This document shows positions 494 to 31,315 of a stretch of 32,000 bases of DNA, piece after piece. The translations under genes were made by a program, and so were the position numbers. Origin of the DNA: Candidatus Electronema halotolerans. Its GTDB lineage: Bacteria > Desulfobacterota > Desulfobulbia > Desulfobulbales > Desulfobulbaceae. The stretch's first letter is position 1. The number at the start of each line of letters is the position of its first letter. Where the stretch lies: assembly GCA_942493095.1 (NCBI GenBank), contig OW818675.1, forward strand, positions 60,001 to 92,000. The letters run 5' to 3'. Under the pieces are notes generated by a model. The model searched no databases, was not told the DNA's origin, and was given only the letters and a program-made list of their open reading frames with translations.

Positions 494-597
494 GCAGCAG
501 CAGCCCTGTTCTGTGCAGCGGGGCTGGCAGCAAACTGGCAGAAACAAAGCATCTGTCAGGCATTCCGTGCAGATGCCTGCTGTGAAATCGACTGACC

Positions 598-1230
598 ATG
601 AATCAAAAAATAGGCAAGAAACTGCAAGAATGGCTTGTTGATGAAGCCGAGGACGCACCTGCTGAAACTGTTTTAGAGACATTGCACAGAAAACTGTGCA
701 AAAGGATAAAATTCTGTTTTAATACAGAAAAAAGGATAGAAGAAAAAATAAAAAACTGGCTTACTGTTGAGGAACAGGAAAACTCTGCTGATTTTATTTG
801 TATAATTGAAGAATCTTTTTTTAAAACAAGAAAAATTATAGCTGCGACAAGTCATCGTATTGTTTTGTTTGAATACAGCCTTTCAGGCACCCTGAAAGAT
901 AAAAGTGATAAAATATGGCGGCAGCTTGTATCTGTGCATTTGCAGGAAAAAATTCCTTATTCCTCGTTGGAGCTTTGCTTCTTTCAGTTTCATGATTCAA
1001 TTTTTTATCACAATCCAAATCAGTTCAGCGACAAGCCCAAGATGAAGCACTGGAGGCTTGACGAGCTGAACAAGAAAAAAGCTCGAATTTTTTATGCTTT
1101 TTTGAAAAATAAAGAAATTGCCATGAAGGAAGCGAGGCGGCAGGAGCATCTCGACAATAAAATTGTCGGCGGCATGGGAGGCATGGCGCGGCCCGGAGGA
1201 GGAGGCCCGCCTCCGGGAGGCGGAAAGTAA
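598..1230 (+). CDS. Hypothetical protein with a bacterial PH-like core and a Gly/Pro-rich C-terminal tail
   Basis: 210-aa ORF. The core (FICIIEESFFKTRKIIAATSHRIVLFEYS...) resembles bacterial PH/YokE-like domains. The tail is GGMGGMARPGGGGPPPGGGK. The coding sequence is strikingly AT-rich compared with its neighbours. Confidence 0.6.
   Translation: MNQKIGKKLQEWLVDEAEDAPAETVLETLHRKLCKRIKFCFNTEKRIEEKIKNWLTVEEQENSADFICIIEESFFKTRKIIAATSHRIVLFEYSLSGTLKDKSDKIWRQLVSVHLQEKIPYSSLELCFFQFHDSIFYHNPNQFSDKPKMKHWRLDELNKKKARIFYAFLKNKEIAMKEARRQEHLDNKIVGGMGGMARPGGGGPPPGGGK

Positions 1231-6661: not shown

Positions 6662-6669
<8 letters not shown>
5443..6669 (+). CDS. Glycosyltransferase family 4 (GT-B fold)
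   Basis: GTG start. C-terminal GT4/GT1 signature RVEGLSNALLEAMSWGLPVLVSD (E-x7-E type). Confidence 0.85.
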
Positions 6670-10039
<3,370 letters not shown>

Positions 10040-10240
10040 ATCATTTTCTGACACTCCTCCAGTGCCTTCGTTTTGGAAAATACTGAGAAATTTTCCAAAA
10101 AAGAAGTGGTACCCCGGAACAGGCTTCAATGCAAGCAAAAAAAACAGGCCCCCGGCTCTTTCCTTGATTTTGCACAGCTTTTCCCTTCAGCGGCCAGCAG
10201 GCGGCATTGCCGTAAAAAAGCTGTTAAATTCGATGATTAG

Positions 10241-10269
10241 TTGACAAGTCTGTTCTGGACGGTACAATA
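10241..10269 (+). promoter_or_regulatory. Candidate sigma70 promoter for the corrinoid/kinase operon
   Basis: TTGACA (10241-10246), a 17-nt spacer, then TACAAT (10264-10269), about 50 nt upstream of ATG 10320. Lies in the divergent intergenic region. Confidence 0.45.
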
Positions 10270-10319
10270 GCATTCAGAGACAATCCGCAACAATTCATTC
10301 TTTTTTGAGGAGTGCGTCC

Positions 10320-10961
10320 ATGAGCAGCGCGGCAGCCCGCAGCCTGAATTTTGCTGACCGGCTTTTGTCCTTGGACAGGCTGGGAGCGGAGGAGATGCTG
10401 GAGCAAGCTGAAGGTCGGCAGCCTCTTCTGCTGATTGAGGAACTGATTGTTCCTGCCCTTGAGGAAATTGGCCACCGCTGGGAACGGGGTGAGACCGCTC
10501 TGGCGCAGGTCTATATGAGCAGCCGGATCTGCGAGGAGCTGATGGCCCGCTTTCTGCCGTCATCCAGCCCGGAGCGGCTCAAGCAGCCCAAGCTCGGCAT
10601 CGCCCTTTTGGACGACTACCATGCCTTGGGCAAGATCATTGTCTGCGCCGCCCTCCGGGCCAGCGGCTGGGACCTGCATGACTACGGCAGGATGACCGCG
10701 CCGGAGCTGGCCGAGCAGGTGATTGAGGATCAGATCGGCATTCTTTTAGTTTCCACGCTCATGCTCCGCTCGGCCCTGCAAGTCAAGGAGCTGCAGGCGC
10801 GGCTGACTGCTGCCGGTTCTCAGACCAAAATCATAGTCGGCGGCGCGCCCTTTCGTTTTGACCCGGAACTCTGGCTGGAAGTGGGCGCGGACGCGACCGG
10901 CAACGACGCTGCCGAGGCAGTGCGGGCCGTGGCCCGCTGCATGGAGGAGTTTTCCCAATGA
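10320..10961 (+). CDS. Corrinoid (cobalamin-binding) protein, MtaC/MtbC/MtsB-like
   Basis: ATG 7 nt after GAGGAG. N-terminal helical cap followed by a Rossmann-type B12-binding domain with the base-off/His-on motif DxHxxG (DDYHALG). Also SGWDLHDYG and LLVSTLM elements. Confidence 0.85.
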   Translation: MSSAAARSLNFADRLLSLDRLGAEEMLEQAEGRQPLLLIEELIVPALEEIGHRWERGETALAQVYMSSRICEELMARFLPSSSPERLKQPKLGIALLDDYHALGKIIVCAALRASGWDLHDYGRMTAPELAEQVIEDQIGILLVSTLMLRSALQVKELQARLTAAGSQTKIIVGGAPFRFDPELWLEVGADATGNDAAEAVRAVARCMEEFSQ

Positions 10962-11986
10962 AGACAATGACCTCAATGGAGCGGGTCATGACCGCCCTCA
11001 GTCACCAGGAGCCAGACCGGGTGCCCTTTTTTCACCTCCTCACCATGCACGGGGCCAAAGAGCTGGGCCTGAGCATCCGCGACTATTTCAGCAAGGCCGG
11101 GCAGGTGATTGAGGGCCAGCTTCGCCTGCGGGCAAAGTACCGGCATGACTGCTTTTACTCACTGCTCTACGGCGCGGCGGAGTTTGAAGCCTTTGGCGGC
11201 GAGGTGATCTGGTACGAGGACGGCCCGCCCAACAGCGGCGAGCCAGTTCTGAAAACGCCGGCAGACATTCTGCGGCTGGAAGCACCAGTGCCGGAGGAGG
11301 TGCCCTGCCTGCGCCGGATGCTGGAGGTGATCAGCGGCTTGAAAGAACGGTGCGGCGATGAGGTGCCGATCATTGGCGTGGCCATTGCTCCCTTTTCTCT
11401 GCCGGTCATGCAGATGGGCTTTCCCGCCTATATTGAATTGCTCTATGAGGAGCCGGAGTTATTCAAACGGTTGATGGCTGTCAATCAGGAGTTCTGCGTT
11501 GCCTTGGCCAATGCCCAGTTTCAGGCCGGAGCAACCACGGTCTGCTATTTTGACCCGCTCGCCTCGCCGGACCTGATTCCAACGGAACTGTACCGCCGCA
11601 CCGGGCTGCTTGCGGCCCGGCACTGCCTGAACCATTTCAACGGCCCGCCCTGCGTCCATCTTGGTTCCAGCCGCTGCCTGCCGGTGATTGAGGAGCTGGC
11701 CGCGCTTGGCGCGGCAGCAGTCGGGGTCAGCGCGCTGGAGGATTTGGCCGCGGTCAAGGCGGCCTGCAAAGGCCGGATCACAGTGGCAGGCAACCTGAAC
11801 GGCATTGCCATGCGCCGCTGGAGCGCGGCCCAAGCTGAGGCGGAAGTGAAAAAGGCGATTGCCGCCGCTGCTGCGGGCGGCGGTTTCATTCTGACGGACA
11901 ATCACGGCGAAATTCCTTGGCAGATCAAGGATGAGACCCTGCTGGCCATTTCTGAGGCCGTGCATGAATGGGGGCGGTATTCATGA
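10958..11986 (+). CDS. Uroporphyrinogen decarboxylase (URO-D) family protein, MtaA/MtbA/MtsA-like methylcobamide methyltransferase
   Basis: 342 aa. N-terminus MTSMERVMTALSHQEPDRVPFF is typical of MtaA/CmuA-type URO-D family members. ATGA overlap with the upstream corrinoid gene. Confidence 0.85.
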   Translation: MKTMTSMERVMTALSHQEPDRVPFFHLLTMHGAKELGLSIRDYFSKAGQVIEGQLRLRAKYRHDCFYSLLYGAAEFEAFGGEVIWYEDGPPNSGEPVLKTPADILRLEAPVPEEVPCLRRMLEVISGLKERCGDEVPIIGVAIAPFSLPVMQMGFPAYIELLYEEPELFKRLMAVNQEFCVALANAQFQAGATTVCYFDPLASPDLIPTELYRRTGLLAARHCLNHFNGPPCVHLGSSRCLPVIEELAALGAAAVGVSALEDLAAVKAACKGRITVAGNLNGIAMRRWSAAQAEAEVKKAIAAAAAGGGFILTDNHGEIPWQIKDETLLAISEAVHEWGRYS

Positions 11987-13815
11987 CCCTCTGCTTCTTG
12001 GTCTGTGAGCATCTTCATGCTGACATGACTGCGGCGGCCCAAGCACAAGGGCTGACCGGCATTGAGCTGCGTGCTTTTCCGGCCCGCTGCGGCGGCCCGC
12101 CCTTGAGTGCCGAGGAGCTGACCGAACTGGCAGCACAGAGCAATGCTGAAGAAAAAGAGTTCTTTGGTTGCGGCTGCATAGGGCAGGAGATAGAAATCCC
12201 TGGCTGCCGGATTCGACGGCTGGAACAGTGCTTTCACCTGCTGATCAGTCCGACCTTGGCGGATGCGCTCCAGCGGAGCGGGGCCTGCCTGCTCACCTCC
12301 GGCTGGCTGGCCTGCTGGCGGCAGGAGCTGAACGAAGAAAAAGGACTTGGCGTTTTTTGGAATAAAATGATCCTGCTTGACACCAAGGCTGACCCGCAGG
12401 CGGAGCAGCATCTTGCTGAATTGGCCGCCTGTCTCCATCTGCCTATGGAAATCATGCCGGTCGGATTAGGATATGCCGGACTGTTTCTTGCCGCCGCCGC
12501 TGGCGAGCACCGGCAGAAAAAGCTCCAGCGGCAGGAGGAGGAGTCGCGGCGGCAGGCGGCGGAATCGGCCATGACCTTGGACATGCTCGGCCTGGTGGTC
12601 AAGGCGGCTTCTGAGGCCGAAGTGCTGGACGGCATTGCGGAACTGTTCCGCATGCTTTTCGCGCCCAAGGAGGTTCACTGCCTGCCAGTGGTCAGAGGGG
12701 GCCTGACTTCTGACCGGCTGGCCGTCCTGACCCCGGAGGAGCGGCAGAGCGCGGAAGAGCTGCTGACCCAGAGTGAACGGCAGCATGAACTGACTGCCAG
12801 CGGCGACGGGTTCTTTTTGCGCCTTGGCACTGACAGCGTGACTTCGGTGCTGGTGCTGGTCCGGCAGGTCACTTTTCCCCAGCATCTGTATTCCTACATC
12901 AACACGGCCCTGAATGTCGCCGGAGTCTGCGCCTTGGCAGTCGAGCATGTGCGCATTCTGAAAAAACTGCTCGACACCTCCCGGCTGGCAGGCAAGGCGG
13001 AAGTGGCCACTGAGGTGCTGCACAATGTCGGCAACACCTTCAACAGCATTTCCGTGGCCTCGGAGCGGCTGCGGGAAATGCTCCGGCAGAGCGGCTGTGT
13101 GACCCTGCCGCCGATCATCAAGCTGATCGAGGAGCACCAGGATAATCTGAGCGCGTTTTGCAGCACTGATCCCAGAGGCCAGAAGCTGCCCCGCTATTTT
13201 GCCAGCCTCTCTGGTCGGCTCATGCAGGAGCGGGAGCTGATGCTGGAGGAGGTGGGCCAGCAGCTCCGCCATATCCGCCGGGCAGCGGAAATCATCCGCA
13301 CCCAGCAGGACACGGCCAGGGGCAAGGGCTTTGTCGAGCTGCTCGACCTGCCAGCGGTGCTGGAGGAAAGTTTGGATATTTTCAGCAAAAAAATCATTGA
13401 GCGGCAGATCATTGTGGCGCGGGACTATGCTGTCCTGCCGCCGATCCGGGGCGAGCGGCACAAAATCCTCCAGATTGTCGGCAATTTGATCAGCAATGCG
13501 GCGGAAGCCTTTGATGGTCTTGAGGAACGGGAAAAGAAAATCACCTTACGCCTTTACCCTGCGGGCGGCAGCAAAGACGCTGGAGCTGTGCTGGAAGTGG
13601 AGGACAACGGCAAAGGCATCACCAAGGCTTTCATGGAGCGAATTTTTCAGTTCGGCTTCAGCGGCAAAGAGGGCGGCCACGGCTTTGGCCTGCACAATGC
13701 CGCCAACTTGGCCGCTGAAATGGACGGCTCGCTGCGGGCGGAAAGCGCGGGCAAGGATAAGGGCGCAATCTTCCGGCTGCTCCTGCCAACCGTGGCGGAC
13801 CGGAGACGGCAATGA
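11983..13815 (+). CDS. Cytoplasmic sensor histidine kinase with an N-terminal DUF1638-like Cys-rich domain and a GAF-like linker domain
   Basis: ATGA overlap with the upstream gene. N-terminal ~160 aa (LVCEHL...FPARCGGP...GCGCIG...EQCFHLLISP...CLLTSGWLACW) resembles DUF1638. H-box EVLHNVGNTFNSI; N-box GNLISNAAEA; G-boxes EDNGKGI and GHGFGLHNAA. No TM helices are obvious. Confidence 0.8.
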   Translation: MTLCFLVCEHLHADMTAAAQAQGLTGIELRAFPARCGGPPLSAEELTELAAQSNAEEKEFFGCGCIGQEIEIPGCRIRRLEQCFHLLISPTLADALQRSGACLLTSGWLACWRQELNEEKGLGVFWNKMILLDTKADPQAEQHLAELAACLHLPMEIMPVGLGYAGLFLAAAAGEHRQKKLQRQEEESRRQAAESAMTLDMLGLVVKAASEAEVLDGIAELFRMLFAPKEVHCLPVVRGGLTSDRLAVLTPEERQSAEELLTQSERQHELTASGDGFFLRLGTDSVTSVLVLVRQVTFPQHLYSYINTALNVAGVCALAVEHVRILKKLLDTSRLAGKAEVATEVLHNVGNTFNSISVASERLREMLRQSGCVTLPPIIKLIEEHQDNLSAFCSTDPRGQKLPRYFASLSGRLMQERELMLEEVGQQLRHIRRAAEIIRTQQDTARGKGFVELLDLPAVLEESLDIFSKKIIERQIIVARDYAVLPPIRGERHKILQIVGNLISNAAEAFDGLEEREKKITLRLYPAGGSKDAGAVLEVEDNGKGITKAFMERIFQFGFSGKEGGHGFGLHNAANLAAEMDGSLRAESAGKDKGAIFRLLLPTVADRRRQ

Positions 13816-15626
13816 AAAAAAACACCCGCTGCGACCGGATCTTAGTTGTTGACGACAATCAGGAAATTCACGCGGATATCAAAAAAATCCTCCAAAAGCC
13901 GCAGGTTTCGCCGGAATTGGATTCGCTCTTTGCTGATATCATCGGCCAGGCTCTTCCGGCAAAAGAGCAGCAGGGCAAGGAGCAGGCCGAGCTGATCATT
14001 GACTCCGCCTTTCAGAGCGAGGAGGCTGTGGCCTTGGTCCGGCAGGCCCGGCTGGAGCGCAGACCCTATGCAATGGCCTATATTGACATGCGGATGCCGC
14101 CCGGCTTGGACGGACTCCACACTCTGCGGCGGCTCCAGCAGGAGGATCATCAGCTTCATTTTGTCGTCATCACCGCTTATGCCGACTATTCCTGGCAGGA
14201 GATCAGCTCGGCCATGCTCTCCGCCGACAAGCTCCTGATCCTGAAAAAACCCTTTGAGGCCATAGAAATTCGCCAGTCCGCCAGTGCCCTGCTGGAAAAA
14301 TGGCATCTGACCTTGGAGCACCGGCAGGCCATGTCCGCCTTGGTTATGCAGCGCAACATGCTGGAGGAGCATGTCCGCGAGCAGACTGCCGAGCTGCGCC
14401 ACACCAATGAGCTGCTGACCAAGGAGATCAAGGAGCGGCGGCGGGCTGAGGAGAAGATCCGCCAGCACCGCGACAGTCTGGAAAAGCAGATTGAGCTGCG
14501 CAGCGCGGAAATCATGCAGCAGAACCGCTTTCTCAACACGGTCATCAATGCTCTGCCGCATCCCTTTGCCGTCATTGATGTGGCCAGCCACCGGATTCTC
14601 GCCGCCAACCGGGCGGCGGGCAGCCGGGCCGCCGGGCGTGACCATCTGCGCACCTGCTATCAGTTCATGCACGGTCTTTCTCGGCCCTGCCACGAACGGG
14701 ACATGGAATGTCCGCTCCAGACAGTCCGTCAGCACGGCAAGCCGGTGGTGCTTGAGCAGACCATGAACGGCCCGGATGGCTCCAAGCAGGTCATGGAGAT
14801 TCACGCCTGCCCGGTGCTTGAACGGGACGGCAGGATCACCAGGGTGATCGAATACTGCGTTGACATCACCCGCCGGAAAAAAATGGAGCAGGAGCTGATC
14901 AGAAACAGGAAGATGGAGGCCATCTCGACAATGGCGGGCGGCATTGCCCATGATTTCAACAATCTGCTCATGGCGATCACCGGCAATATCGAACTGTCGC
15001 TCCTCAAGCTGCACCCGGAGCACAGCGTGCTGCCGTTTCTCAAAAATGCGGCCTTCTCAGCAGAAGAGGCCAAGCATCTGGCCCATAAATTCCTTCTTTT
15101 CTCCCACTTTGCCCCGCCTGCGCGCAGGCCGGTGCCCTTGGCCGAGCTGATCGCGGCTGCGGCCAGAGCCGCGCTGGATGGCAGCGGCAGCACAGCGGAA
15201 CTGCACCTGCCAGACAACCTCTGGCTCCTTTATGCTGATCCTGGACAGATTGAGCAGCTGCTCCAGGAGCTGCTCAAAAATGCCCGTGAAGCAATGGCTC
15301 CGGCAGGCGGCACCGTGCGGATCAGCGCCGAGAATGTCTGCCTGCTCGGCCATGAGGCCAGCGGTCGCAGCCAGGGCCGCTATGTCAGGATTGCGGTCAG
15401 CGACAAAGGCTGCGGCATTAAGAAGGAAGACCTGCCCAAAATTTTTGATCCCTATTTTTCCGGCAAAAGCAGAGGCTCGGTCAAAGGCATGGGGCTGGGA
15501 CTGACCATTGCCGCCTTCATTGTCAGCCAGCATGAGGGCCATCTCGAAGCCGAGGCCGGGCCAGGAGGGGTTGGTGCCACTGTGCTTGTTGACATTCCCG
15601 CTGCCGAGGTGAACGGGAACAGCTGA
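13812..15626 (+). CDS. Response-regulator receiver / coiled coil / PAS / HisKA / HATPase hybrid kinase
   Basis: ATGA overlap with the upstream kinase gene. REC domain: ILVVDDNQ, phospho-acceptor context AYIDMRMPPGLDG, LKKPF. PAS with several Cys. H-box GGIAHDFNNLL; G-boxes SDKGCGI and GMGLGLTIA. Confidence 0.88.
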   Translation: MKKNTRCDRILVVDDNQEIHADIKKILQKPQVSPELDSLFADIIGQALPAKEQQGKEQAELIIDSAFQSEEAVALVRQARLERRPYAMAYIDMRMPPGLDGLHTLRRLQQEDHQLHFVVITAYADYSWQEISSAMLSADKLLILKKPFEAIEIRQSASALLEKWHLTLEHRQAMSALVMQRNMLEEHVREQTAELRHTNELLTKEIKERRRAEEKIRQHRDSLEKQIELRSAEIMQQNRFLNTVINALPHPFAVIDVASHRILAANRAAGSRAAGRDHLRTCYQFMHGLSRPCHERDMECPLQTVRQHGKPVVLEQTMNGPDGSKQVMEIHACPVLERDGRITRVIEYCVDITRRKKMEQELIRNRKMEAISTMAGGIAHDFNNLLMAITGNIELSLLKLHPEHSVLPFLKNAAFSAEEAKHLAHKFLLFSHFAPPARRPVPLAELIAAAARAALDGSGSTAELHLPDNLWLLYADPGQIEQLLQELLKNAREAMAPAGGTVRISAENVCLLGHEASGRSQGRYVRIAVSDKGCGIKKEDLPKIFDPYFSGKSRGSVKGMGLGLTIAAFIVSQHEGHLEAEAGPGGVGATVLVDIPAAEVNGNS

Positions 15627-15701
15627 GTGACGTGAAACAACTCCTCATTTGGCAGGCGCAGAGCGCACTTGCAACGTGAATACATGTTACTTGGAGACAG
15701 C

Positions 15702-16913
15702 ATGGAATATGTCATTGTCGGCGGTTCCGTGGCCGCAGCTTCAGCGTTGGCGGCCATTCGTCAGAACAGGCCCAGGGCGGAAATCCGGGTCGTGGCTGAT
15801 GAAGCGGTTCCGTTTTATTATCGACCGCTGATTCCTTATTTGCTGGACGGCAGCCGGACTGCTGATGAAATCCTCTTTGCCGAGCAGCCCTCAGCCACTG
15901 ACGGGGCAGAACTGATCCACAACCGCTGCGTGGCCCTTGATCCAGCCCAGCAGCGCATCAGGCTGCAATCAGGCCGGGACGTGACCTACAGCAAACTGCT
16001 CTTGGCTGCGGGCGGCGCGCCGATCATGCTCTTGGGCGACCTTGACGGCGTGGAACACCAAGGAGTCTTCACCCTGCGCAGCATGGATGATGCGATCAAA
16101 ATCAGGGACTTCCTGCCCGGTTGCCGGACAGCGGCGGTCATTGGCGGCGGGCTGGTCGGCATCAAGGCGGCTGAGGCCTTGGCCAAGATTGGTCTGGCAG
16201 TCACGGTCATTGAACAGAAGGAGCAGATTCTGCCGCTCCGAGCAGACCACGTTGCGGCAGCGGCAATTGCGGCCCGGCTCATAGAAAAAGGCGTGACCGT
16301 TCTGACCGGGCAGGTGCCGCAGACAATAACTGCCTCGGCAGGCAGGGCAGACGGTGTGCGCCTTGCAGATGGCAGAACAGTGACGGCTGATCTGGTCATT
16401 CTCGCGGTTGGCATCAGGCCGAAGATTGATTTTCTCGCTCAATCAGGGATTGCCATCGAGCGGGGTGTGCTGGTGGACAGCCGGATGCAGACTTCGCTGC
16501 CAAACATTTATGCTGCCGGGGATTTGGTGCAGTTCACGGATCAGGCCGCAGGCGGCGAGGAAGTCAGCGCCCTGTGGAGCAATGCTGTTCACACCGGCAG
16601 AATTGCAGGCTCCAATATGAGCGGAGGCCGGGCCGTGGCACCGCCCATGCTTTCGGTCATGAACAGCACCGAGATCGCCGGACTGCCCCTGATTTCAGCC
16701 GGGCAGCTTGATGATCCGGCAGGAGAATGTGCTGTCTTTGCTGAATCCTGCGGCGACAGCTACCGCAAGCTCCTTTTTGCTGAGGAACGCCTTGTCGGCC
16801 TGCTCTTTCTTGGCAATGTTGACCGGGCCGGGGTCTATGTCAACATGATCCGCAACCGGATGCCGCTGCAAGGACGGCGGGGTGAGCTTGTCCGGGAGGT
16901 TATGAAATTCTGA
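15702..16913 (+). CDS. FAD-dependent pyridine nucleotide-disulfide oxidoreductase family protein (ferredoxin/rubredoxin-reductase-like)
   Basis: ATG after GGAGA. Two dinucleotide folds: YVIVGGSVAAASA and AAVIGGGLVGIKAAEAL. The AAGD motif is present. No N-terminal redox-active CxxxxC. Confidence 0.85.
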   Translation: MEYVIVGGSVAAASALAAIRQNRPRAEIRVVADEAVPFYYRPLIPYLLDGSRTADEILFAEQPSATDGAELIHNRCVALDPAQQRIRLQSGRDVTYSKLLLAAGGAPIMLLGDLDGVEHQGVFTLRSMDDAIKIRDFLPGCRTAAVIGGGLVGIKAAEALAKIGLAVTVIEQKEQILPLRADHVAAAAIAARLIEKGVTVLTGQVPQTITASAGRADGVRLADGRTVTADLVILAVGIRPKIDFLAQSGIAIERGVLVDSRMQTSLPNIYAAGDLVQFTDQAAGGEEVSALWSNAVHTGRIAGSNMSGGRAVAPPMLSVMNSTEIAGLPLISAGQLDDPAGECAVFAESCGDSYRKLLFAEERLVGLLFLGNVDRAGVYVNMIRNRMPLQGRRGELVREVMKF

Positions 16914-16955
16914 CAAGCAGGCTGCGCTCAAGAGGAAAACCATCAACCATCACGG

Positions 16956-16987
16956 TTGACAGTAAAGAATTGACCGTGCTATATAAT
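16956..16987 (+). promoter_or_regulatory. Candidate sigma70 promoter for the Mo-enzyme gene
   Basis: TTGACA (16956-16961) followed 18-20 nt later by TATATAAT (16980-16987), about 75 nt upstream of ATG 17064. Confidence 0.35.
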
Positions 16988-17063
16988 GCAATTGTTTTGC
17001 GAGAAAGGTCATTGTTTCTTTTGGATGCAAGAGAAGAATTTCAGGCAGTTTTGGAGAAAAGCG

Positions 17064-19853
17064 ATGGGTGAACAAGTCAGTTTGCTGAAGGCGGCAACCT
17101 ACCATTTTATCTCCCTTTTCTATCGGGATGAAATTTCCCTGCCGCTTTTAGAAAAGCTGTCTGGCAGCCAAGTTGCGGCGCAGATCAGCGGCTTGGGGAA
17201 TAACCAAGAAGCAGCAGAACTTCATGCTCCTTTGGCCCGGATGAACGGCTGGCTTCAATCTGCTCCGGCAGAGGAACTGTTCCGCGAGCTGCGCCATGAC
17301 TATGCCGAGCTGTTTCTTAATGCAGGCCAGAATCCCGCCTTCCCATACAGCTCCTGTTATGTTTCCAGCAAGATTGAGCCGCTGCTCATGCAGGAGCCGT
17401 TGTTCCAAGCGCGCAAGGCCTATCATGCCAGCGGACTGCATAAGAACCCTGCTTGGCCGGACTTGGATGACCACATTGCCGTGGAGCTGGAATTCATGGC
17501 TTATTTGGCCGGACAAGCTGGAACTGAGAAGCAGCAGGCAGATTTTCTCTGCAATCACCTCCTGCCTTGGGCCGAGCCATTCTGCACCCAGCTTGCTGAT
17601 TCCGCAACAACAGATTTTTACAAAGGGCTGGCTGATCTGACAACAGCGGTGCTGACTGCGGATGATGCCACGCTCGCGGCCTTGGAACCGCTGCTGGCTG
17701 CGTTAGACGTGGACACTCAATTAGTCACGCTGGCGGAAGGGGCAGTGCCGCCGACAGAAGACAGCAGTGTCAAGACGCATTGCTATGTCTGCGCTGGTCT
17801 TTGCGGGCAGGAAATTAGAATCAAAGACGGGGTTATTGTCGGCTGCAAAGGGCTGGCCGGTGATCCCAAGGGTGGCGGGCGGCTCTGCATCAAAGGCGCG
17901 AATGCGCATAAGAACACCTATTCCGCCTACCGTTTGAAAACGCCGCTTATTCGTGAGCAAGGCCGATTCCGCAAAGCCTCTTGGCAGGAAGCCCTTGACC
18001 TGACTGCGGACAAGCTGAAGAGCTTTGCTCCCAAGACAGTCGGCTTTCATCAGGGCAATGACTTTAACAGCTGGTGTCACGATGCGGTCATGGCGGCCTA
18101 TGGCACACCCAATAAGACCACCCATCGCCAGATGTGCGACAATCCCAACCGGATGGCCAATGAGCACTGTCTGGGCGAGAAGCGGCCTTGGCTTGACTAC
18201 GCGCATTCGCAGTATATTCTCCTCTTTGGCATCAATGAGCTGGCCACCTCTGTCGGGCAGCGCAAGGTCAGCCTGCTCAAACAGGCGGTGAAGAATGGAG
18301 CCAAGCTGGTGGTGGTTGATCCGCGCCGCTGCGAGACAGCCCAGCTTGCCACCGAGTGGATACCGATCATTCCCGGCACAGACGGCGCCTTGGCAATGGC
18401 GATGTGCTATGTCATTGTTGCGGACAATCTTTATGACAAAAACTTCACGGAAAACTGGTGCTATGGCTTTGCCGAGTTCAATCAACGGCTGCTGGGCGAG
18501 GAGGACGGCATAGTTCGCAGTCCGCAATGGGCCGAGGCCATCTGCGGCGTGCCAGCGGCAACCATTGAGCGGCTGGCCCGTGAGTTTGCTGCTGCCGCCC
18601 CTGCCGCAGGCGCACTGTCATGGACTGGGGTTGGTCAGACACCAAATGCTGTTCACGCCACCCAAGCGATACAGGCCCTGAACGCCCTGCTCGGCTGCTT
18701 TGACGCGCCCGGCGGCCCGGCCTTGGTCGGCAAGTTCAAGCTAGCCTCGCCGTGGGCGGATGATCAGCCTAAGCCGCCCAAAAACGCCGAGAAGTTCAAA
18801 CTCAATCCCGGCAGACTGTGGAGCGGTTGGATTCCGGCCTATTTTGAAGAAGATGCGCAGGCCGGGCGGCTCAAGGCCATGCTCTGCTATTTCGGCAATC
18901 CGGTCATGTCCAGCGGCGCGGAGCCAAGCCTGCGCCGAGCGGTTGACAAGCTGGACTTTGCTTGCGCCATTGACTGCTTTATGAGCAATACTGACGAGCT
19001 GTGCGACGTGGTATTGCCGGACTGCACCTATTTGGAGCAGAGCCGGGTGGTTTCTGACTGGATGTATGAATCCTTTCTTTCGCTGGGCCAGAAGGCGATT
19101 GAGCCGCTGTATGAATCTCGGCCCGTGGTCTGGATATTCACGGAGCTGGCTCAACGGCTCGGCTTTGGCGAATATTTCCCGTGGCAGAGCGAGGACGAGT
19201 ACCTGCGCAATCAGCTCCGCAATCAGCAGGTGACGCTGGAGGAGCTGCGCGAGACGGGCTATTTCATCACCGACCCACAAGCCTTCCGCAAGTACGAGCA
19301 GTGGGGTTCGATCAATCCGCCGCCCGGTTACGGAGCCTCTGGTCACAGCGCGACCGGCAAATACAACTTCATCAATCCTGTTGCAGAAAAGGCTGGCCTG
19401 AACGCCCTGCCTGACTACCTGCCGCCGTGGCAGGACTGGCCGGAACTGGCCCCTGATGCGGATTATCCGCTCATTCTTGGCTACTTCCGGCTGCTGGAGC
19501 ATGAGCACACTGCGACCTGCTGGAATCCGGCCTTGATGAAGCAGTGCGGCAGCAATCCGGTCTGGATCAACTGGTTAGATGCGAAAGCCAGCAGCATTGC
19601 GGACGGCGATAAGGTGCTGATCGCTTCGCCTTGGGGACAGGTTCAGGGGACAGCAAAAGTGACGTGGGATATTCGTCAAGGTGTGCTGGCCACAGCAGGC
19701 GGCTTTGGCGGCAGATACGGGCTGGAAGGTGATCCTAAGTTTCCAAGCTGCGGCGGCTTCAACACCAATGTCCTCCTGCCGCCCAACGTGGCCTGCAAAT
19801 GGTCTGGCACCCCGCCGCTGAAGTATATCAAAACCAGAATTGAAAGGATTTGA
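17064..19853 (+). CDS. TorD/DmsD-like chaperone domain fused to a molybdopterin (bis-MGD, DMSO-reductase family) oxidoreductase catalytic subunit
   Basis: ATG 6 nt after GGAGA. The N-terminal ~200 aa carry TorD-family signatures (DYAELFLNAGQNPAFPYSSCY; DDHIAVELEFMAYLA). After an Ala/Leu/Asp-rich linker comes the MopB 4Fe-4S motif C-x2-C-x3-C...C (HCYVCAGLCGQ...RLCIKG). MopB and C-terminal molybdopterin-binding regions follow, ending in VLIASPWGQVQGTAKV. No twin-arginine signal and no in-frame stop. Confidence 0.85.
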   Translation: MGEQVSLLKAATYHFISLFYRDEISLPLLEKLSGSQVAAQISGLGNNQEAAELHAPLARMNGWLQSAPAEELFRELRHDYAELFLNAGQNPAFPYSSCYVSSKIEPLLMQEPLFQARKAYHASGLHKNPAWPDLDDHIAVELEFMAYLAGQAGTEKQQADFLCNHLLPWAEPFCTQLADSATTDFYKGLADLTTAVLTADDATLAALEPLLAALDVDTQLVTLAEGAVPPTEDSSVKTHCYVCAGLCGQEIRIKDGVIVGCKGLAGDPKGGGRLCIKGANAHKNTYSAYRLKTPLIREQGRFRKASWQEALDLTADKLKSFAPKTVGFHQGNDFNSWCHDAVMAAYGTPNKTTHRQMCDNPNRMANEHCLGEKRPWLDYAHSQYILLFGINELATSVGQRKVSLLKQAVKNGAKLVVVDPRRCETAQLATEWIPIIPGTDGALAMAMCYVIVADNLYDKNFTENWCYGFAEFNQRLLGEEDGIVRSPQWAEAICGVPAATIERLAREFAAAAPAAGALSWTGVGQTPNAVHATQAIQALNALLGCFDAPGGPALVGKFKLASPWADDQPKPPKNAEKFKLNPGRLWSGWIPAYFEEDAQAGRLKAMLCYFGNPVMSSGAEPSLRRAVDKLDFACAIDCFMSNTDELCDVVLPDCTYLEQSRVVSDWMYESFLSLGQKAIEPLYESRPVVWIFTELAQRLGFGEYFPWQSEDEYLRNQLRNQQVTLEELRETGYFITDPQAFRKYEQWGSINPPPGYGASGHSATGKYNFINPVAEKAGLNALPDYLPPWQDWPELAPDADYPLILGYFRLLEHEHTATCWNPALMKQCGSNPVWINWLDAKASSIADGDKVLIASPWGQVQGTAKVTWDIRQGVLATAGGFGGRYGLEGDPKFPSCGGFNTNVLLPPNVACKWSGTPPLKYIKTRIERI

Positions 19854-19908: not shown

Positions 19909-21347
19909 ATGGTGCTTCCGCTGCATCTTGGCCACCGCAGCCTGCTGAGGTCGTCCAATGAAACCAAACGCAGCAGGAAACCAGCTCCTGCGCAGATGAA
20001 AACACCAAGCAGCAGTGGCAGAATAATGCCATAGTTCTGGGCTATTGCAGCGGCTGCTGTTCCGGCTGCGCCGCCGATTGTCAGCGTCAGCATGGTTTTG
20101 GTCAGCATGGCGGGCAGCAGGTCGCGGAAGAGCAGCCAGTTGATGACAAACATCAGGCCGCTGGAAAGAACAATTGCCCAGCTGCTGCCGAGCGACGCAT
20201 AGTGCGGTATCAGAAGCAGATTGCCTATTCCGCAGAGCAGCACTCCTGCCGCCTGCACCCAGCCCATTGCGCTGACCCGTTTTGCGGCAATGAAAAAGGC
20301 ATCAAAGATCGTGTTGAGAAAGGAAAAGCTGATCGACAGGGAAAGAATGCGGAAAACCTGCGCTGAAGCCGTGAAGTCCGGGCCGAGAATGAGCGGAATG
20401 ATCTGATCTGCCAAGGCGGCGGCAAAAAAGGTCAGCAGGAGGCAGACAAGGAGCATGAAGCGGAACACGGCCTGACTGGTCTGGCGCAGCTCGTCCCGAT
20501 TTTCGGCAAAAAAGAGGCGGGAGAAGATCGGCAGCAGGACTGGCATGAAGGTCATGGGAATGATCTGCACTCTGGTGAAAATGCGGAATGGAGCCTGAAA
20601 CAGGGCTGCCTCGGCATTGCCCGCCAAGACCTTGAGAAGAAAAACGCCTGTGTAAAGGTGCAGCTGCACCAAGAGTTGAAACAGGCCGATCTGCAAGGAC
20701 TCACGCAGCAGGTCTTTGGCGTGGCGCAAGGTGAAAATTTGCCGAGGCAGCTCGCGCAGATAAGGCGAGAGTTTGCTGGTCAGCCAAATTGTTGTCATGA
20801 AACCGGCCAGACAGGCAAGGGCATTGGCACTGAAAATCGCTCCAAGACCGAGCTGCCAGCGCATGACAAGGGCGACCAAGCCAATCAGGACAAAGGCGCT
20901 GGTCAGAGCCGGGATGGTTTCGTACTGCATCCGCTGCAAGGCAATGCTGACTGTGCCTGCGGTCTGGGTCATGGCCATGATGCCGGTGGTTGCGGCAATG
21001 ATCAGCAGCAGCTTGAGATCAGGCAGATTGATGAACGAGCCGACTACCAGCAGCCCGGCGGCGATGAGCAGGGTCAGAAGCAGATTCCATGTCCAGCCGA
21101 GCAGAATATGTCCAGCCGCACGTTCCTTGTGCTGGGCGATTTCCCGGACTAAAATTCTCGGAAAGCCCAAGTTCAGGAGCGGCAGGGCCACCCAGCCAAT
21201 GGCCATGAGCACGGAATAGCGGCCAAAATCTTCCAGCCCCAAATAGCGGGACAGCATCCCGACCAAGGTTAGGCCGACCAGCAGCTCGGCGGCGCGGGCG
21301 GCAAAAGTGAAGCTGAGATTGGCCGCCATGCGGCGGGTTTCACCCAT
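19902..21347 (-). CDS. Polysaccharide biosynthesis flippase (Wzx-like, MOP superfamily)
   Basis: Polytopic membrane protein with about 12-14 hydrophobic segments, of the polysaccharide-biosynthesis/oligosaccharide-flippase type. Start set at ATG 21347 (MGETRRM...) because 21348 onward belongs to the IS inverted repeat; the open frame runs to 21374 inside the IS end. Confidence 0.85.
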   Translation of the reverse strand: MGETRRMAANLSFTFAARAAELLVGLTLVGMLSRYLGLEDFGRYSVLMAIGWVALPLLNLGFPRILVREIAQHKERAAGHILLGWTWNLLLTLLIAAGLLVVGSFINLPDLKLLLIIAATTGIMAMTQTAGTVSIALQRMQYETIPALTSAFVLIGLVALVMRWQLGLGAIFSANALACLAGFMTTIWLTSKLSPYLRELPRQIFTLRHAKDLLRESLQIGLFQLLVQLHLYTGVFLLKVLAGNAEAALFQAPFRIFTRVQIIPMTFMPVLLPIFSRLFFAENRDELRQTSQAVFRFMLLVCLLLTFFAAALADQIIPLILGPDFTASAQVFRILSLSISFSFLNTIFDAFFIAAKRVSAMGWVQAAGVLLCGIGNLLLIPHYASLGSSWAIVLSSGLMFVINWLLFRDLLPAMLTKTMLTLTIGGAAGTAAAAIAQNYGIILPLLLGVFICAGAGFLLRLVSLDDLSRLRWPRCSGSTMQ

Positions 21348-21363
21348 GGGTTCCTCGAAAAAT
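21348..21363. repeat. IS left terminal inverted repeat (IRL)
   Basis: GGGTTCCTCGAAAAAT, immediately preceded by CCAT (21344-21347). Confidence 0.8.
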
Positions 21364-21410
21364 ACAACATCCATTCTGCTGCATTTGTTTTGTTATTTTT
21401 TATTTTAATA

Positions 21411-21438
21411 TTGAAATTTCAGTCTATTATGTTATAAT
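21411..21438 (+). promoter_or_regulatory. Candidate transposase promoter inside the IS
   Basis: TTGAAA (21411-21416), a 16-nt spacer, then consensus TATAAT (21433-21438), 40 nt upstream of ATG 21478. Confidence 0.4.
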
Positions 21439-21477
21439 TTCGGCATCAATTCAACTCATGCTGCCGGAGATGCACAG

Positions 21478-22491
21478 ATGAACCAACTTGGATTTTTTGA
21501 TTTTTATATTCGTCTTTCCCGAATTGACAAAGCAGGTGATCCTTTAGTTAAGATCAACAAGGCTATTGACTGGGAAATATTTCGGCCAATTCTTGAAGAA
21601 GCAAAAAGAAAGCCTGTGAAATCAAATGCTGGAGCTAAAGGTTATGATTCAGTCATGATGTTCAAAATTTTAATTTTGCAATCATTATACAATCTTTCTG
21701 ATAAAGGGATGGAATATCAAATTCTTGACAGATATTCGTTTTCCAGATTCCTTGGACTTCGGGCGGCTGACAAAGTTCCAGATGCGACAACGATATGGCT
21801 TTTTCGTGAAACTTTGACCAAAGCAGGAAAAATCGAGGAACTGTTTTCTGTTTTTGACGAATTTCTTGATGAAAATGGATATCAAGCCAGAAAAGGGCAG
21901 ATAGTCGACGCTTCCATAGTCAACGCCCCGATCCAGCGTAACAGCCGCAAGGAAAACAAGCAGATCAAGAATGGTGAACAGCCTGAAGGATGGAGTGAGA
22001 ATAAGCAGGCGCAGAAGGATACTGATGCCCGTTGGACCAAAAAGAACGGCAGAAGCTTTTTTGGTTATAAAAATCATATATCTGTTGATGTGAAGCATAA
22101 ATTCATCCGAAAATATGCGGTGACCAGCGCCGAGGTTCATGACAGCAATATTTTTGAGGAGCTGCTTGACCCTGACAACACCAGTCGGGATATCTATGCG
22201 GATTCGGCATACAGATCTGAAAAAAAGCTCAACTGGTTGAACGAGAATGGATACAGAGAGCATCTGAACCGCAAAGGAACACGAAGCCGGAAACTGACCG
22301 AATGGGAGAAGCAGGGAAATCGGACAAGATCAAAAATTCGCTCCCGGATTGAACACGTCTTCGGCATCCAGGCGCAACGTGCTGGCAATATGATTCTCCG
22401 AGGAACAGGTTTCATTCGCGCTGCTGCGAAAATAGGCTTGAGAAACTTGACGTTCAATATTGACAGGTACGGAACTCTTAATAAAATTTAA
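21478..22491 (+). CDS. IS5-family DDE transposase
   Basis: 337 aa. N-terminus (FFDFYIRLSRIDKAGDPLVKINKAIDWEIFRPILE) and DDE contexts (QIVDASIVNAP; IYADSAYRS; RSRIEHVFG) are typical of IS5-group transposases such as InsH. Confidence 0.92.
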   Translation: MNQLGFFDFYIRLSRIDKAGDPLVKINKAIDWEIFRPILEEAKRKPVKSNAGAKGYDSVMMFKILILQSLYNLSDKGMEYQILDRYSFSRFLGLRAADKVPDATTIWLFRETLTKAGKIEELFSVFDEFLDENGYQARKGQIVDASIVNAPIQRNSRKENKQIKNGEQPEGWSENKQAQKDTDARWTKKNGRSFFGYKNHISVDVKHKFIRKYAVTSAEVHDSNIFEELLDPDNTSRDIYADSAYRSEKKLNWLNENGYREHLNRKGTRSRKLTEWEKQGNRTRSKIRSRIEHVFGIQAQRAGNMILRGTGFIRAAAKIGLRNLTFNIDRYGTLNKI

Positions 22492-22627
22492 GATTTAAAA
22501 AAAAGAAACGCATTCAGGAACATATTTCAACGGAAGTTTGCTCAAAATAAATAAAAAACAGGAAATAACAATTTATGTATTTGAAATTTTCAACTGTCAA
22601 AGACACTATTGATAAGCTGAAAAAACT

Positions 22628-24742
22628 TTATCTCAAATTTTTCGAGGTTCCCCCATGACGGCAGGCGGCTGCCGCAGACAGGCGGCTTTGTCTGCACTTG
22701 TTGAACACCCAGCCGACCTCTTGAATGCCTGCCTGCTGGATGCGCTGCTGTGTCTCCTCAGCTTCTGCCAGCAAAGTTTTGCCGCATTCAAGCACACAGA
22801 TGAGCAAATCCGCTGCCGGGCTGAGAATGAGCGCGTCGCTGCCTGCCCGCAGAGAGGGACTGTCCAGCAAGACCATCTCATAGCCTTGGCCGCAATCACG
22901 CAGCAGCGGCAGCAGCTCAACAGCGTCGATGATGCTGCCCGGATCAGCAATATTTCGGCCCGCAGTGAGAATATCCAAGCCAGGAGCTGCATCAGGGCGC
23001 AGGGCCTCCTTAAAAGGCAATTTGCCTGCAATGACTTCAGCCAGCCCCTGCCGGTTTTTCAAAGCAAAGCTGCGATGCAGGACAGGCTGACGCAGGTTAA
23101 GATCAATGAGCAGGGTCTTTTTCCCGGCAGCGGCACAGGACAAGGCGAGATTGGCGGCCAGACTGCTCTTGCCTTCGCCGTTGCTGGAACTGGTGATCAG
23201 CACTATCTGGGCAGGCTTGCCGCCAGCCGCAAAAGCGAGACTGTGACGGATGCTCCGGTATGACTCAGCTAAGGGTGAACCGGGCGGCAGGCGGGAAAGC
23301 AGCCGCCGTCCGCGCAGGTGGCGGAAAAAAGGAATGCTGCCCAGCAGCCTGAAGCGGTCAAAATGGCGCAGGTCCGCAGGCGACTGAATGGCGGTGTCGA
23401 TATATTCAACGAAAAACGCGGCTGCCGTGCCCCAGAACAGGCCGAGAAACAATCCGGCCATGAGCATGATGGATTTCTTGGGAAATTTTTTCTTGTCAGG
23501 AACTTGCGCTGGTTCGACCACTCTGGTGTCAGACAAGGCGACCGCTTCAGCGACCTCCACTTTGCGCAGATAGGTGAGAAAAGTCTCATACACGTCTTTG
23601 CTGGAGGAAAGAGACAGCTCCAGCTGGGCCAGCCGGGCGGATTTCTCTGGAATGGCAGCCAATTTTTTCTCATATTCAGCAATCATGCGCCGGAGCAGGG
23701 TGCTTTTGGCCCGTCCCACTTCCCGGCTGATCTGAAGATCAACCAATTTGCTCGACAGAGAGTCATAAACCGGATCAATGCCGAAATTTTTTCGGTTCAA
23801 GGTGATGCTCTCGCTCTGGCTGATCAATTCCTTGACCTTGTCCAATTCGCTGGCCAACTGCTTGTATTCAGGATGATCTTTCTGATAGACCGTGCTCTTG
23901 GCGGCAAAGCTGATCAGCAGTTCGTTCAACTTTGCCTTCAGCGCGGTCATCTCGCCGTCTTTGGAAAATTCCTCAGTCTCCTGCCGATACTTGCTCACCT
24001 TGTTGAGCTGGGCCTCTGCGCTGGCGATTTCCTTGTCCTGCAAGGCAAGAAGCTGCTTGTTGTCCTCGTAACTTTTTGTCAGGTCGTTGAGCCGGGACAT
24101 GGTGTTGCTCAACTCAGTGTCCAAGTCTGCCGCGTTTTCATTGACTTTGAAGGCCGTCAGGTCGTCAAGCGCTGTGCTGTAATCGGCATGAAGCAGGGGC
24201 AGTTTATTTTTTATGAATGCCTTGACTTTGCCGAACTCAGCCTGCGCCCGCTGGACATTGAAGTCAAGATACAGCTCTGCCAGCCGGTTGGCAATTTGGG
24301 CAGACTGCTCCGCTTCTGGCGAGGTGGCCGTGATTTTGAGAATCGCGGTGTCCTCCTCCTGCTTGATCTTGACCGCAGGCTGGGGCAGCAGCTTGTTGAT
24401 CAGCGCGGCATCGACCAAATCCTCGGCCTTGATGGTCTCGCCATCCCGGTCTTTCAATTTGAGTTTCTTGATCAAATCGTCCAACAGCGGCCTGACCTTG
24501 GCCAAGGCGGTCTTGGTCTCAAAGATATCCTCATCGCTGCTTGCCACAGTGCCGGGCATGTCCAGCTCGGCCATCAATGACGACAGGGCACTGGAGGACT
24601 GAATAAAGAGCTTGGCCACGGCCTGATAGGTGGGCGTGATCAGCACGGCTCCGGCGGCAAAGGCGAGGAAGAAAAAAAGAAAGACGGCAAGGAAGGTGCA
24701 TTTCCGCCGCAGGAGGGTGTCCAGCAGTTGTAAAAATTCCAT
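22628..24742 (-). CDS. Polysaccharide co-polymerase / tyrosine-autokinase-like protein (Wzc/GumC/EpsG type, PCP-2)
   Basis: ATG 24742 after AAGGA. N-terminal Wzz-type TM segment, long coiled-coil periplasmic region and a second TM. C-terminal P-loop domain (Walker A SSSNGEGKSS, Walker B MVLLDSPS). The last 7 codons plus the stop lie inside the IS right end. Confidence 0.88.
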   Translation of the reverse strand: MEFLQLLDTLLRRKCTFLAVFLFFFLAFAAGAVLITPTYQAVAKLFIQSSSALSSLMAELDMPGTVASSDEDIFETKTALAKVRPLLDDLIKKLKLKDRDGETIKAEDLVDAALINKLLPQPAVKIKQEEDTAILKITATSPEAEQSAQIANRLAELYLDFNVQRAQAEFGKVKAFIKNKLPLLHADYSTALDDLTAFKVNENAADLDTELSNTMSRLNDLTKSYEDNKQLLALQDKEIASAEAQLNKVSKYRQETEEFSKDGEMTALKAKLNELLISFAAKSTVYQKDHPEYKQLASELDKVKELISQSESITLNRKNFGIDPVYDSLSSKLVDLQISREVGRAKSTLLRRMIAEYEKKLAAIPEKSARLAQLELSLSSSKDVYETFLTYLRKVEVAEAVALSDTRVVEPAQVPDKKKFPKKSIMLMAGLFLGLFWGTAAAFFVEYIDTAIQSPADLRHFDRFRLLGSIPFFRHLRGRRLLSRLPPGSPLAESYRSIRHSLAFAAGGKPAQIVLITSSSNGEGKSSLAANLALSCAAAGKKTLLIDLNLRQPVLHRSFALKNRQGLAEVIAGKLPFKEALRPDAAPGLDILTAGRNIADPGSIIDAVELLPLLRDCGQGYEMVLLDSPSLRAGSDALILSPAADLLICVLECGKTLLAEAEETQQRIQQAGIQEVGWVFNKCRQSRLSAAAACRHGGTSKNLR
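22637..22652. repeat. IS right terminal inverted repeat (IRR)
   Basis: ATTTTTCGAGGTTCCC, whose reverse complement is GGGAACCTCGAAAAAT. Immediately followed by CCAT (22653-22656). Confidence 0.8.
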
Positions 24743-31215: not shown

Positions 31216-31256
31216 TGCCTGCTGAACCGGAACCTTCATTCCGGCGGTGATGTGCA

Positions 31257-31290: not shown

Positions 31291-31315
31291 GCCCGCAATA
31301 ACGCACTGACACGCC

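Follow-up and report, generated by a model that had tools for sequence, protein, structure and literature searches.

Why would a corrinoid protein and a partner of the URO-D fold be encoded, each gene overlapping the next, ahead of two histidine kinases? The question is raised by a four-gene operon at positions 10241-15626 (+) of a 32,000-nucleotide (nt) stretch of DNA, hereafter the window, from the cable bacterium Candidatus Electronema halotolerans, whose NCBI entry for the first kinase is 100% identical to the protein encoded here. We propose that the corrinoid protein (g1), the URO-D-fold protein (g2) and the N-terminal DUF1638 domain of the first histidine kinase (HK1) probably form a cytoplasmic sensory input module that drives a phosphorelay of two kinases, HK1 and HK2. 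The gene neighbourhoods surveyed below show this trio to be passed on as one block, ahead of signalling outputs that are interchangeable, and the trio is probably an undescribed kind of sensor. On the same comparison, the module is a large family of modular sensors and not a peculiarity of the E. halotolerans genome.

The open reading frame (ORF) listing gives a predicted promoter and four coupled genes in the order g1-g2-HK1-HK2, in which DHp denotes the dimerisation and histidine phosphotransfer domain, CA the catalytic and ATP-binding domain, and AF2 an AlphaFold2 model:

10241-10268 (+), predicted sigma-70-like promoter, TTGACA-16-TACAAT, with 11 of 12 consensus matches, within a 180-nt divergent intergenic region
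10320-10961 (+), g1, corrinoid (cobamide-binding) protein, with its ATG behind GAGGAG
10958-11986 (+), g2, URO-D superfamily protein (Pfam URO-D), MtaA-like, of a distinct subfamily
11983-13815 (+), HK1, soluble histidine kinase with DUF1638, GAF-like, DHp and CA parts (Pfam and AF2 model)
13812-15626 (+), HK2, REC-PAS-HisKA-HATPase kinase (Pfam)

Direct reading of the sequence places ATGA stop/start overlaps at 10958, 11983 and 13812. Two starts can be drawn differently: the longest ORF of g1 begins at TTG 10305, upstream of the ATG at 10320, and the identical NCBI protein (615 amino acids, aa) begins HK1 at ATG 11968, with a 19-nt overlap, where we use 11983. The latter fits the family alignment as well as 11968, and both overlap g2. 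The promoter is a consensus match alone, three sites of its grade being observed between 10000 and 17100 against 1.2 expected. A first-pass annotation, made from the letters of the window, had described this promoter and the four ATGA-coupled genes, a DxHxxG corrinoid protein at their head and a REC-PAS-HisKA-HATPase kinase at their end. These descriptions are borne out, profile searches returning B12-binding, B12-binding_2, URO-D and DUF1638 matches in the first three proteins and Response_reg, PAS_4, a weak HisKA and HATPase_c in HK2.

The evidence that carries our reading comes from the company that the DUF1638 domain keeps. When a profile of the HK1 input domain was searched against 1.84 billion cluster representatives, it matched 1306 at E<=1e-3 and 633 at E<=1e-30, and 137 of the best 150 matches were proteins of 366-1479 aa with an N-terminal DUF1638 domain. 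The domains found in 70 sampled proteins were HATPase_c (50), HisKA (36), REC (16), HisKA_2 (6), GGDEF (6) and HWE (5). Named sources comprised cable bacteria, Desulfocapsa, another Thermodesulfobacteriota metagenome-assembled genome (MAG), Candidatus Parabeggiatoa (Gammaproteobacteria) and Anaerolineales (Chloroflexota), and a third, profile-based homologue search found no additional taxa. Electronema KV and PJ, Electrothrix YB6, the Desulfocapsa MAG and the other Thermodesulfobacteriota MAG all have the genes in the order g1-g2-HK1-HK2; in E. laxa the order of g1 and g2 is swapped. Throughout the cable-bacterial and related loci examined, the genes overlap or abut.

Linkage was then counted on metagenome contigs picked by two peptide patterns from DUF1638 alone, with g1 and g2 mapped afterwards by tblastn. 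Loci entered the denominators if they had a strong DUF1638 match and at least 300 nt of upstream sequence for URO-D, or at least 1800 nt for corrinoid plus URO-D, and were reduced to 43 non-redundant clusters at ~80% identity. The URO-D gene ended within a few bases of the DUF1638 start at 48 of 56 loci (38 of 43 non-redundant, 88%), and corrinoid, URO-D and DUF1638 followed one another in that order at 32 of 40 (28 of 35 non-redundant). As a control we used 74 genome loci (1.03 Mb) carrying the HK1 kinase-core motif and no DUF1638, the other six loci of that scan being true family members; a corrinoid, URO-D or DUF1638 match was found at none of the 74. The idea that the adjacency is fortuitous, with two unrelated gene pairs caught under one promoter, has next to no probability, being effectively refuted by this survey; the overlap of the genes also speaks against it.

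Behind the trio, the outputs varied widely: HisKA, HisKA_2, HWE and HNVGN kinases, hybrid kinases, a PAS-GAF hybrid kinase, HisKA-REC, GGDEF, PAS-GGDEF-EAL and a SpoIIE phosphatase. DUF1638-kinase fusions thus recur beside corrinoid/URO-D pairs, as the first-pass annotation led one to look for, and the module with its swapped output domains is found in at least three phyla. The same input, interchangeable outputs and no conserved enzyme partners make up the pattern of a sensory module; kinases that did no more than regulate a catalytic operon are difficult to square with it. A fourth gene, conserved upstream of the trio, was considered and rejected. The ten upstream neighbours share nothing catalytic, and five of them are other signalling proteins.

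Turning to the members of the trio, g1 matches B12-binding (4e-17) and B12-binding_2 (6e-13) at 62.5 and 49.2 bits, against cut-offs of 32.1 and 23, and has the layout of a helical cap followed by a Rossmann B12 domain of the base-off/His-on type. The DxHxxG motif reads D99-Y-H101-A-L-G104 (10614-10631), and D99xH101xxG104, S145-T-L147 and G174-G175 are invariant across 35 module orthologues. With all needed residues kept, g1 is by its sequence able to bind a cobamide in the His-on mode. It falls below every NCBIfam corrinoid equivalog cut-off (MtaC, MtbC, MtgC and pyl_corrinoid), the best being TIGR02370 at 71.5 against 215.3 bits.

A cap joined to a B12-binding domain is also the architecture of CarH, to whose NCBIfam model g1 bears a weak match (27 bits against a cut-off of 400), and it is established chemistry that methyl- and adenosyl-cobamides are photolabile. 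The module could on these grounds be a cobalamin photoreceptor of the CarH/AerR kind, in which light would cleave the Co-C bond of g1 and g2 would regenerate the cofactor. We consider this very improbable. The light motif of CarH, which we take to be W-x9-E-H in the cap domain, reads W54-x9-V-Y in g1 (family consensus SQVYMS), and there is no MerR domain; a CarH-type photoreceptor was rejected on the absence of this motif. CarH-type systems, moreover, are not known to need a URO-D partner, and the named hosts of the module (cable bacteria, Desulfocapsa, Parabeggiatoa, Anaerolineales) are sediment organisms.

The likeness of g2 to MtaA, put forward in the first-pass annotation, stood in part. 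g2 is a full-length URO-D protein (PF01208, 1e-51), and the profile of its family finds MtaA (4AY7, 5e-22) as the best match among solved structures, but the MtaA/CmuA cut-offs are not reached (TIGR01463, 96.7 against 235.4 bits; NF040654, 84.5 against 400). By its model it is not HemE either (TIGR01464, 46 against 302.95 bits), and model scores and profile matches together place it nearer MtaA than HemE, yet in a separate subfamily. The zinc site of MtaA, which we take to be His240-x-Cys242 ... Cys319, is also missing: MtaA H-I-C aligns to H234-L-A/G236 of g2, with Ala/Gly at the position of Cys242, and the C-terminal motif DNH316GE318IP, which resembles the G-H-G of HemE, apparently puts His at that of Cys319, a position assigned via HemE, HMMER having left the region unaligned to MtaA. 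MtaA-type zinc-thiol chemistry was therefore rejected for g2, and the analogy with MtaA and MtsA is loose, because g2 lacks both zinc ligands and falls far below the MtaA/CmuA cut-off.

C240 occurs in only 20 of 35 orthologues, while H234 and H316-G-E318 are near-invariant. The mean column identity of g2 over these 35 metagenome orthologues is 69%, whereas their DUF1638 domains share only 30-45%, and such strong conservation is an argument that g2 has kept a catalytic function or one involving several partners. In MtaA-type methyltransferases, the fold to which this strongly conserved protein belongs is the one that docks onto the corrinoid protein.

The conservation of g2 is equally what one expects of an enzyme, and g1 and g2 might belong to an ordinary catalytic methyltransferase system, for instance for methyl-sulfur compounds or methyl-selenide in the manner of the mlp clusters, whose partners lie elsewhere, whose kinases regulate it or are co-expressed, and whose DUF1638 is a fused maturation or reactivation factor. 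Some Electrothrix have the gene order URO-D / corrinoid / URO-D, a stand-alone DUF1638 gene is genetically tied to a catalytic corrinoid enzyme (PMC5764234), and MtaA-like/corrinoid clusters exist in bacteria (PMC10418091). We nevertheless judge this explanation unlikely. The bacterial mlp clusters have a RACE activase and several Mlps, with no mention of kinases (PMC10418091), whereas here neither an activase nor a second type of methyltransferase is conserved. The trio travels instead with interchangeable histidine kinase, GGDEF, EAL and SpoIIE outputs, the module contains no DNA-binding regulator able to control transcription, and the Zn-thiolate site of MtaA is not present in g2. The pair was said at first to be unaccompanied by a substrate-specific methyltransferase (MT1) or a reductive activase; this agrees with a Pfam scan in which no RACE/RamA activase, MT1 or tetrahydrofolate methyltransferase was found among window ORFs of at least 200 aa, the rest of the genome lying outside the scan, and none was found among the gene calls and upstream neighbours of the related loci examined.

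The third member of the trio is the N-terminal part of HK1, with these features:

11983-12462 (+), DUF1638-type input domain, aa 1-160 (Pfam relatives, AF2)
12004, 12088, 12175 and 12229 (+), conserved cysteines C8, C36, C65 and C83 (alignment)
12301 and 12379 (+), input motifs GWLxxW and LLDT (alignment)

HK1 itself scores 25.9 bits (E=1e-5) against DUF1638 (PF07796), just below the 27-bit gathering score. The assignment, already suggested in the first-pass annotation, is confirmed by its relatives: 69 of 70 match the family (best 3.8e-17), those with other outputs at 29-54 bits, and PF07796 is precomputed for the database protein identical to HK1. Modelled alone from a 148-sequence alignment, the region is by prediction a well-folded alpha/beta domain (predicted local distance difference test, pLDDT, 95.6; predicted template modelling score, pTM, 0.89). 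Its fold gave no functional lead, as Foldseek found no match at E<1e-3 among 350,542 chains of the Protein Data Bank (best E 4e-3), and the best template modelling (TM) score was only 0.45, to the PrpR N-domain. The four cysteines, located in the model at the C-terminal ends of beta strands 1-4 or just past them, are better conserved than any other feature of the domain, being kept in ~93% of 148 diverse relatives, as are the GWLxxW and LLDT motifs. They may form a metal or iron-sulfur site atop the sheet.

Split methionine synthase provides independent genetic evidence that ties DUF1638 to corrinoid proteins (PMC5764234). In Phaeobacter inhibens, a DUF1638 gene lies beside that for the B12-binding piece of this enzyme and is required for methionine synthesis; stand-alone DUF1638 and a RamA-like activase co-occur across the phylogeny, no specific function being put forward by the authors (PMC5764234). 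A later paper places it within reductive recharging (PMC12478193). Of the four cysteines, these stand-alone proteins (~220 aa) retain three, and they share the GWLxxW and LD motifs; C36 is replaced, within a PGLH motif. At locus L157 (4456-8253) a stand-alone DUF1638 gene has a DUF362 gene on one side and methylenetetrahydrofolate reductase genes on the other, and at L092 (2648-3841) a DUF362 gene precedes one sensor module, so that the DUF362 association may recur.

If the cysteines are what matters most, DUF1638 could be a self-sufficient Cys4 redox or metal sensor, with the corrinoid and URO-D proteins as its downstream clients or as parallel components. Besides the prominence of the four cysteines, such a sensor would account for family members that have no adjacent corrinoid and URO-D genes, and for Parabeggiatoa-type loci, which retain only a corrinoid gene or a 39-aa remnant. 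It sits badly, on the other hand, with the 88% linkage at non-redundant loci, where g2 abuts the DUF1638 start, with the genetics of stand-alone DUF1638, which point to action on a corrinoid protein, and with the lack of an obvious route by which the kinase could act on g1 or g2. We hold it to be distinctly unlikely. The case is evenly poised for DUF1638 as a widespread, new-fold Cys4 input domain that would read, or exchange with, a cobamide protein, the state of which a URO-D-fold enzyme would set. That a methyl group passes from methyl-Co(III) to a cysteine thiolate of DUF1638, as in the Ada switch, we regard as improbable.

Some loci depart from the common arrangement. At the Parabeggiatoa-type loci L091 and L088/L093, a DUF1638-HisKA-HATPase-REC kinase is followed by a REC-kinase, with no URO-D gene; the corrinoid gene is upstream at L091 and reduced to the 39-aa remnant at L088 and L093, an arrangement that suggests stepwise loss of accessory genes. 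L127 (4481-6534) has a stand-alone sensor-type DUF1638 (252 aa), a corrinoid gene and a second DUF1638 gene, again with no URO-D gene, and a free DUF1638 may here take the place of the URO-D partner. NMT1/THI5-like (periplasmic-binding-type) genes, with or without large GAF/PAS kinases, neighbour more distant DUF1638 kinases at L005, the P0053 locus and L089, which hints at larger multi-kinase networks.

What lies behind the input domain is a proposed relay, whose parts are as follows:

12469-12987 (+), HK1 connecting helix (aa 163-206) and GAF-like domain (aa 211-335) (AF2 secondary structure)
12997-13797 (+), HK1 kinase core, DHp and CA, with H347 in LHNVGN at 13021 and a helical insert at aa 371-400
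HK2 aa 9-160 (+), REC, with D92 at 14085 and a conserved insertion
HK2 aa 240-356 (+), PAS (Pfam PAS_4)
HK2 H380 at 14949 (+), DHp, with H380-D-F-N-N-L-L conserved
HK2 aa 476-597 (+), CA (HATPase_c, 73.7 bits)

Both kinases have their catalytic residues intact, as judged from alignment. In HK1, HATPase_c matches at 7e-18 (65.4 bits), and the N, G1, F and G2 boxes are invariant (N501/N505, D541-N-G-x-G545, F555/F559 and G567-x-G569). No Pfam HisKA match was found in HK1; the predicted phospho-acceptor is the invariant H347, on helix 339-368 of a DHp with two helices. The AF2 model of the whole protein (pLDDT 88.4) has a TM score of 0.6-0.7 to HK853. Pfam GAF families match some relatives, and the top fold matches include a GAF-containing bacteriophytochrome kinase. 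The receiver of HK2 is canonical (Response_reg, 41.4 bits; D14, D15, D92 and K146 invariant, T121 conserved), and its HisKA domain is weak in Pfam (17.2 against 26.9 bits). A motif in the HK2 PAS domain (window 14650-14720), C-Y-x3-H-G-x3-P-C-H-E-x4-C-P-L, is kept in cable-bacterial orthologues and could be a metal or cofactor site, giving HK2 a second input of its own.

HK1 has neither a receiver of its own nor an adjacent response regulator, and transfer from kinase 1 to the receiver of kinase 2 had been part of the first proposal. The 74 control loci, which are unrelated, support it: at 43 of them an HNVGN-type core is followed within 400 nt by a gene for an HK2-type receiver, 36-49% identical to the REC of HK2 over ~160 aa. 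They come from Verrucomicrobiota, Planctomycetota, Myxococcota, Pseudomonas, Desulfobacula and Acidobacteriota, and the receiver-headed downstream proteins are REC-PAS-HisKA-HATPase(-REC), REC-(PAS)-GGDEF-EAL or REC alone. Because an HK2-type receiver trails the HNVGN core so often at unrelated loci, the HK1 core and the HK2 receiver are members of a conserved cognate pair, which supports phosphotransfer from HK1 to HK2. The REC-kinase as universal partner of DUF1638 sensors was rejected, REC being present in only 9 of 29 genes downstream of DUF1638; the relay thus belongs to the kinase lineage and the sensing to the trio. The HNVGN core, with its helical DHp insert and no Pfam HisKA, followed by an insertion-bearing receiver (for example L059, 8001-11146, and L044, 8001-10950), looks like a widespread two-step cassette, of which we found no description.

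How might such a module work? We suggest that g2 would dock on the cofactor of g1 and set its cobalt state, probably through methyl transfer between a small molecule and the Co(I)/methyl-Co(III) of g1. The DUF1638 domain would bind g1 in a state-dependent manner, or exchange electrons or methyl with it through the Cys4 metal or iron-sulfur site. The change would travel via the long helix and the GAF-like domain to H347 of the DHp, altering HK1 autophosphorylation, and phosphorylated HK1 would pass its phosphoryl group to D92 of the HK2 receiver, gating the PAS-regulated kinase of HK2. HK2 would then signal onward, possibly through a neighbouring hybrid kinase/Hpt protein. The state of the corrinoid, be it methyl, redox or light, would be what is read, as first proposed.

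As to the stimulus, methyl-donor availability is a tentative candidate: a g2 that loads methyl groups would allow the module to report such a donor. Redox, or the inactivation of Co(I) by an oxidant, is a slightly weaker one: if stand-alone DUF1638 recognises inactive Co(II), the fused version could report oxidative inactivation of Co(I). Cobamide status is improbable, and light highly so, given the missing CarH motif and the sediment habitat of the named hosts.

Several observations weigh against the trio as a sensory input. Gene order alone cannot distinguish an input from a target. In Electrothrix aestuarii and E. marina two URO-D paralogues flank the corrinoid gene, the additional one lying upstream, and the resulting URO-D / corrinoid / URO-D order resembles the catalytic trio of MT1, corrinoid protein and MT2. 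Without the zinc cysteines of MtaA, g2 may not be a methyltransferase. Finally, ~12-20% of the family (L111, L139, L141/L148, L005 and L088) has no adjacent corrinoid or URO-D gene, which implies that the DUF1638 domain can work alone or with partners encoded elsewhere.

Comparison with known systems sets the proposed sensory module apart from each of them. The pairs MtaC/MtaA, MtbC/MtbA and MtsB/MtsA of Methanosarcina likewise place a cap-plus-Rossmann, His-on corrinoid protein beside a URO-D-fold partner, but in the module g2 has neither Cys242 nor Cys319, g1 and g2 score below the family cut-offs, no MT1 or RamA is nearby, and the third partner is a signalling protein. CarH/LitR and AerR/PpaA also use a B12-binding protein as the sensing element of a regulatory pathway; these, however, are light sensors that act directly on DNA or a repressor, whereas the output of the module would be phosphorylation or cyclic di-GMP, reached via a separate DUF1638 reader and a URO-D partner. 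The Methanosarcina sensor kinases MsmS and RdmS are encoded beside the mts corrinoid methyltransferase genes, much as the module kinases adjoin URO-D and corrinoid genes, but they have heme-binding GAF domains and regulate the catalytic mts genes, and they are not known to have a DUF1638 domain or such a conserved, translationally coupled trio. The logic of a separate ligand- or cofactor-binding protein that reports to a kinase input is that of TorT-TorS, LuxP-LuxQ and PII-NtrB; the accessory protein of the module differs in being a cytoplasmic cobamide protein that comes with an enzyme to modify it, and the reader domain in being a new fold.

Split methionine synthase, in Phaeobacter inhibens and Ruegeria pomeroyi, shares with the module a DUF1638 beside a B12-binding protein and functionally required with it (PMC5764234, PMC12478193). 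There, however, a free DUF1638 of ~220 aa serves an enzyme and a RamA-like activase is present, while in the module DUF1638 is the N-terminal domain of kinases, cyclases and phosphatases and no RamA-like gene accompanies it. Type 1 mlp clusters (Kountz and Balskus, preprint, PMC10418091) are bacterial MtaA-like/corrinoid clusters that likewise have no tetrahydrofolate methyltransferase; they are mostly from Firmicutes and have two to three distinct Mlps and a RACE activase, their text has no kinase or DUF1638 (PMC10418091), and the module differs in its single URO-D type, its lack of an activase and its signalling output. A full-text literature search turned up just four papers with a mention of DUF1638, in none of which it was treated as a signalling domain, and nothing was found on corrinoid/URO-D pairs coupled to kinases, cable-bacteria genome papers included. 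The first-pass annotation had known of no characterised system of this architecture, and the search returned no description of one. Within the reach of sequence data its interpretation is supported, and is widened from a single operon to a large modular family.

Within accessory-protein-dependent signal transduction and B12-based regulation, the input module is without precedent, and should the signal prove to be the state of the corrinoid, the principle of sensing would be new as well. It would be the first non-photic, protein-based vitamin-B12 sensor, converting a methyl-donor or redox signal into phosphorylation, cyclic di-GMP or partner-switching in at least three phyla; kinases, cyclases and phosphatases would have as their front end a corrinoid protein and the enzyme that modifies it. 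DUF1638, genetically required for a B12 enzyme, would gain a concrete, testable role, and what its orphan forms do in split methionine synthase and in methylotrophic systems would be explained as the recognition of a particular cobalt state. The family comprises more than 1000 sequence clusters, mostly from sediment and wetland metagenomes, a source from which a tractable host may be drawn. Both cable-bacterial genera examined have conserved the operon. Their filaments must coordinate cells across oxic and sulfidic zones, and a redox or methyl sensor based on Co(I) could be relevant to the way they perceive position.

The flanks of the operon hold one further signalling gene:

6662-10138 (-), divergent hybrid kinase, dCache_3-PAS-PAS-HisKA-HATPase-REC-Hpt (Pfam)

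Its position is kept in Electronema sp. KV (65% identity), and hybrid kinases also adjoin the module in Electrothrix, MAGs and several metagenome loci, which is suggestive of a third member of the relay. On the other side, a gene for a PadH-like NAD(P)H flavin oxidoreductase begins 42 nt past the HK2 stop, and nothing resembling a terminator lies in between. Next, within window 15669-19853, comes a PhsA/DmsA-like molybdopterin oxidoreductase with an N-terminally fused TorD-type chaperone domain, an unusual fusion. That these oxidoreductase genes belong to the system is not supported, neither being found in the other cable-bacterial loci examined. An Rfam scan of the window detected no riboswitch or other RNA family.

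Elsewhere in the window, a DDE_Tnp_1/DUF772 transposase (21478-22491) lies within a patch of low GC content at 21000-23000 (45-47% against ~58% elsewhere), flanked by polysaccharide-export genes of the Polysacc_synt flippase-like and Wzz/GNVR tyrosine-kinase-like kinds. Six ORFs of 200-400 aa are unmatched in Pfam: 47-682 (-), 598-1230, 1163-1819, 28468-29088 (-), 29104-30063 (-) and 30103-31317 (-). The first 1 kb of the window has a GC content of 46%.

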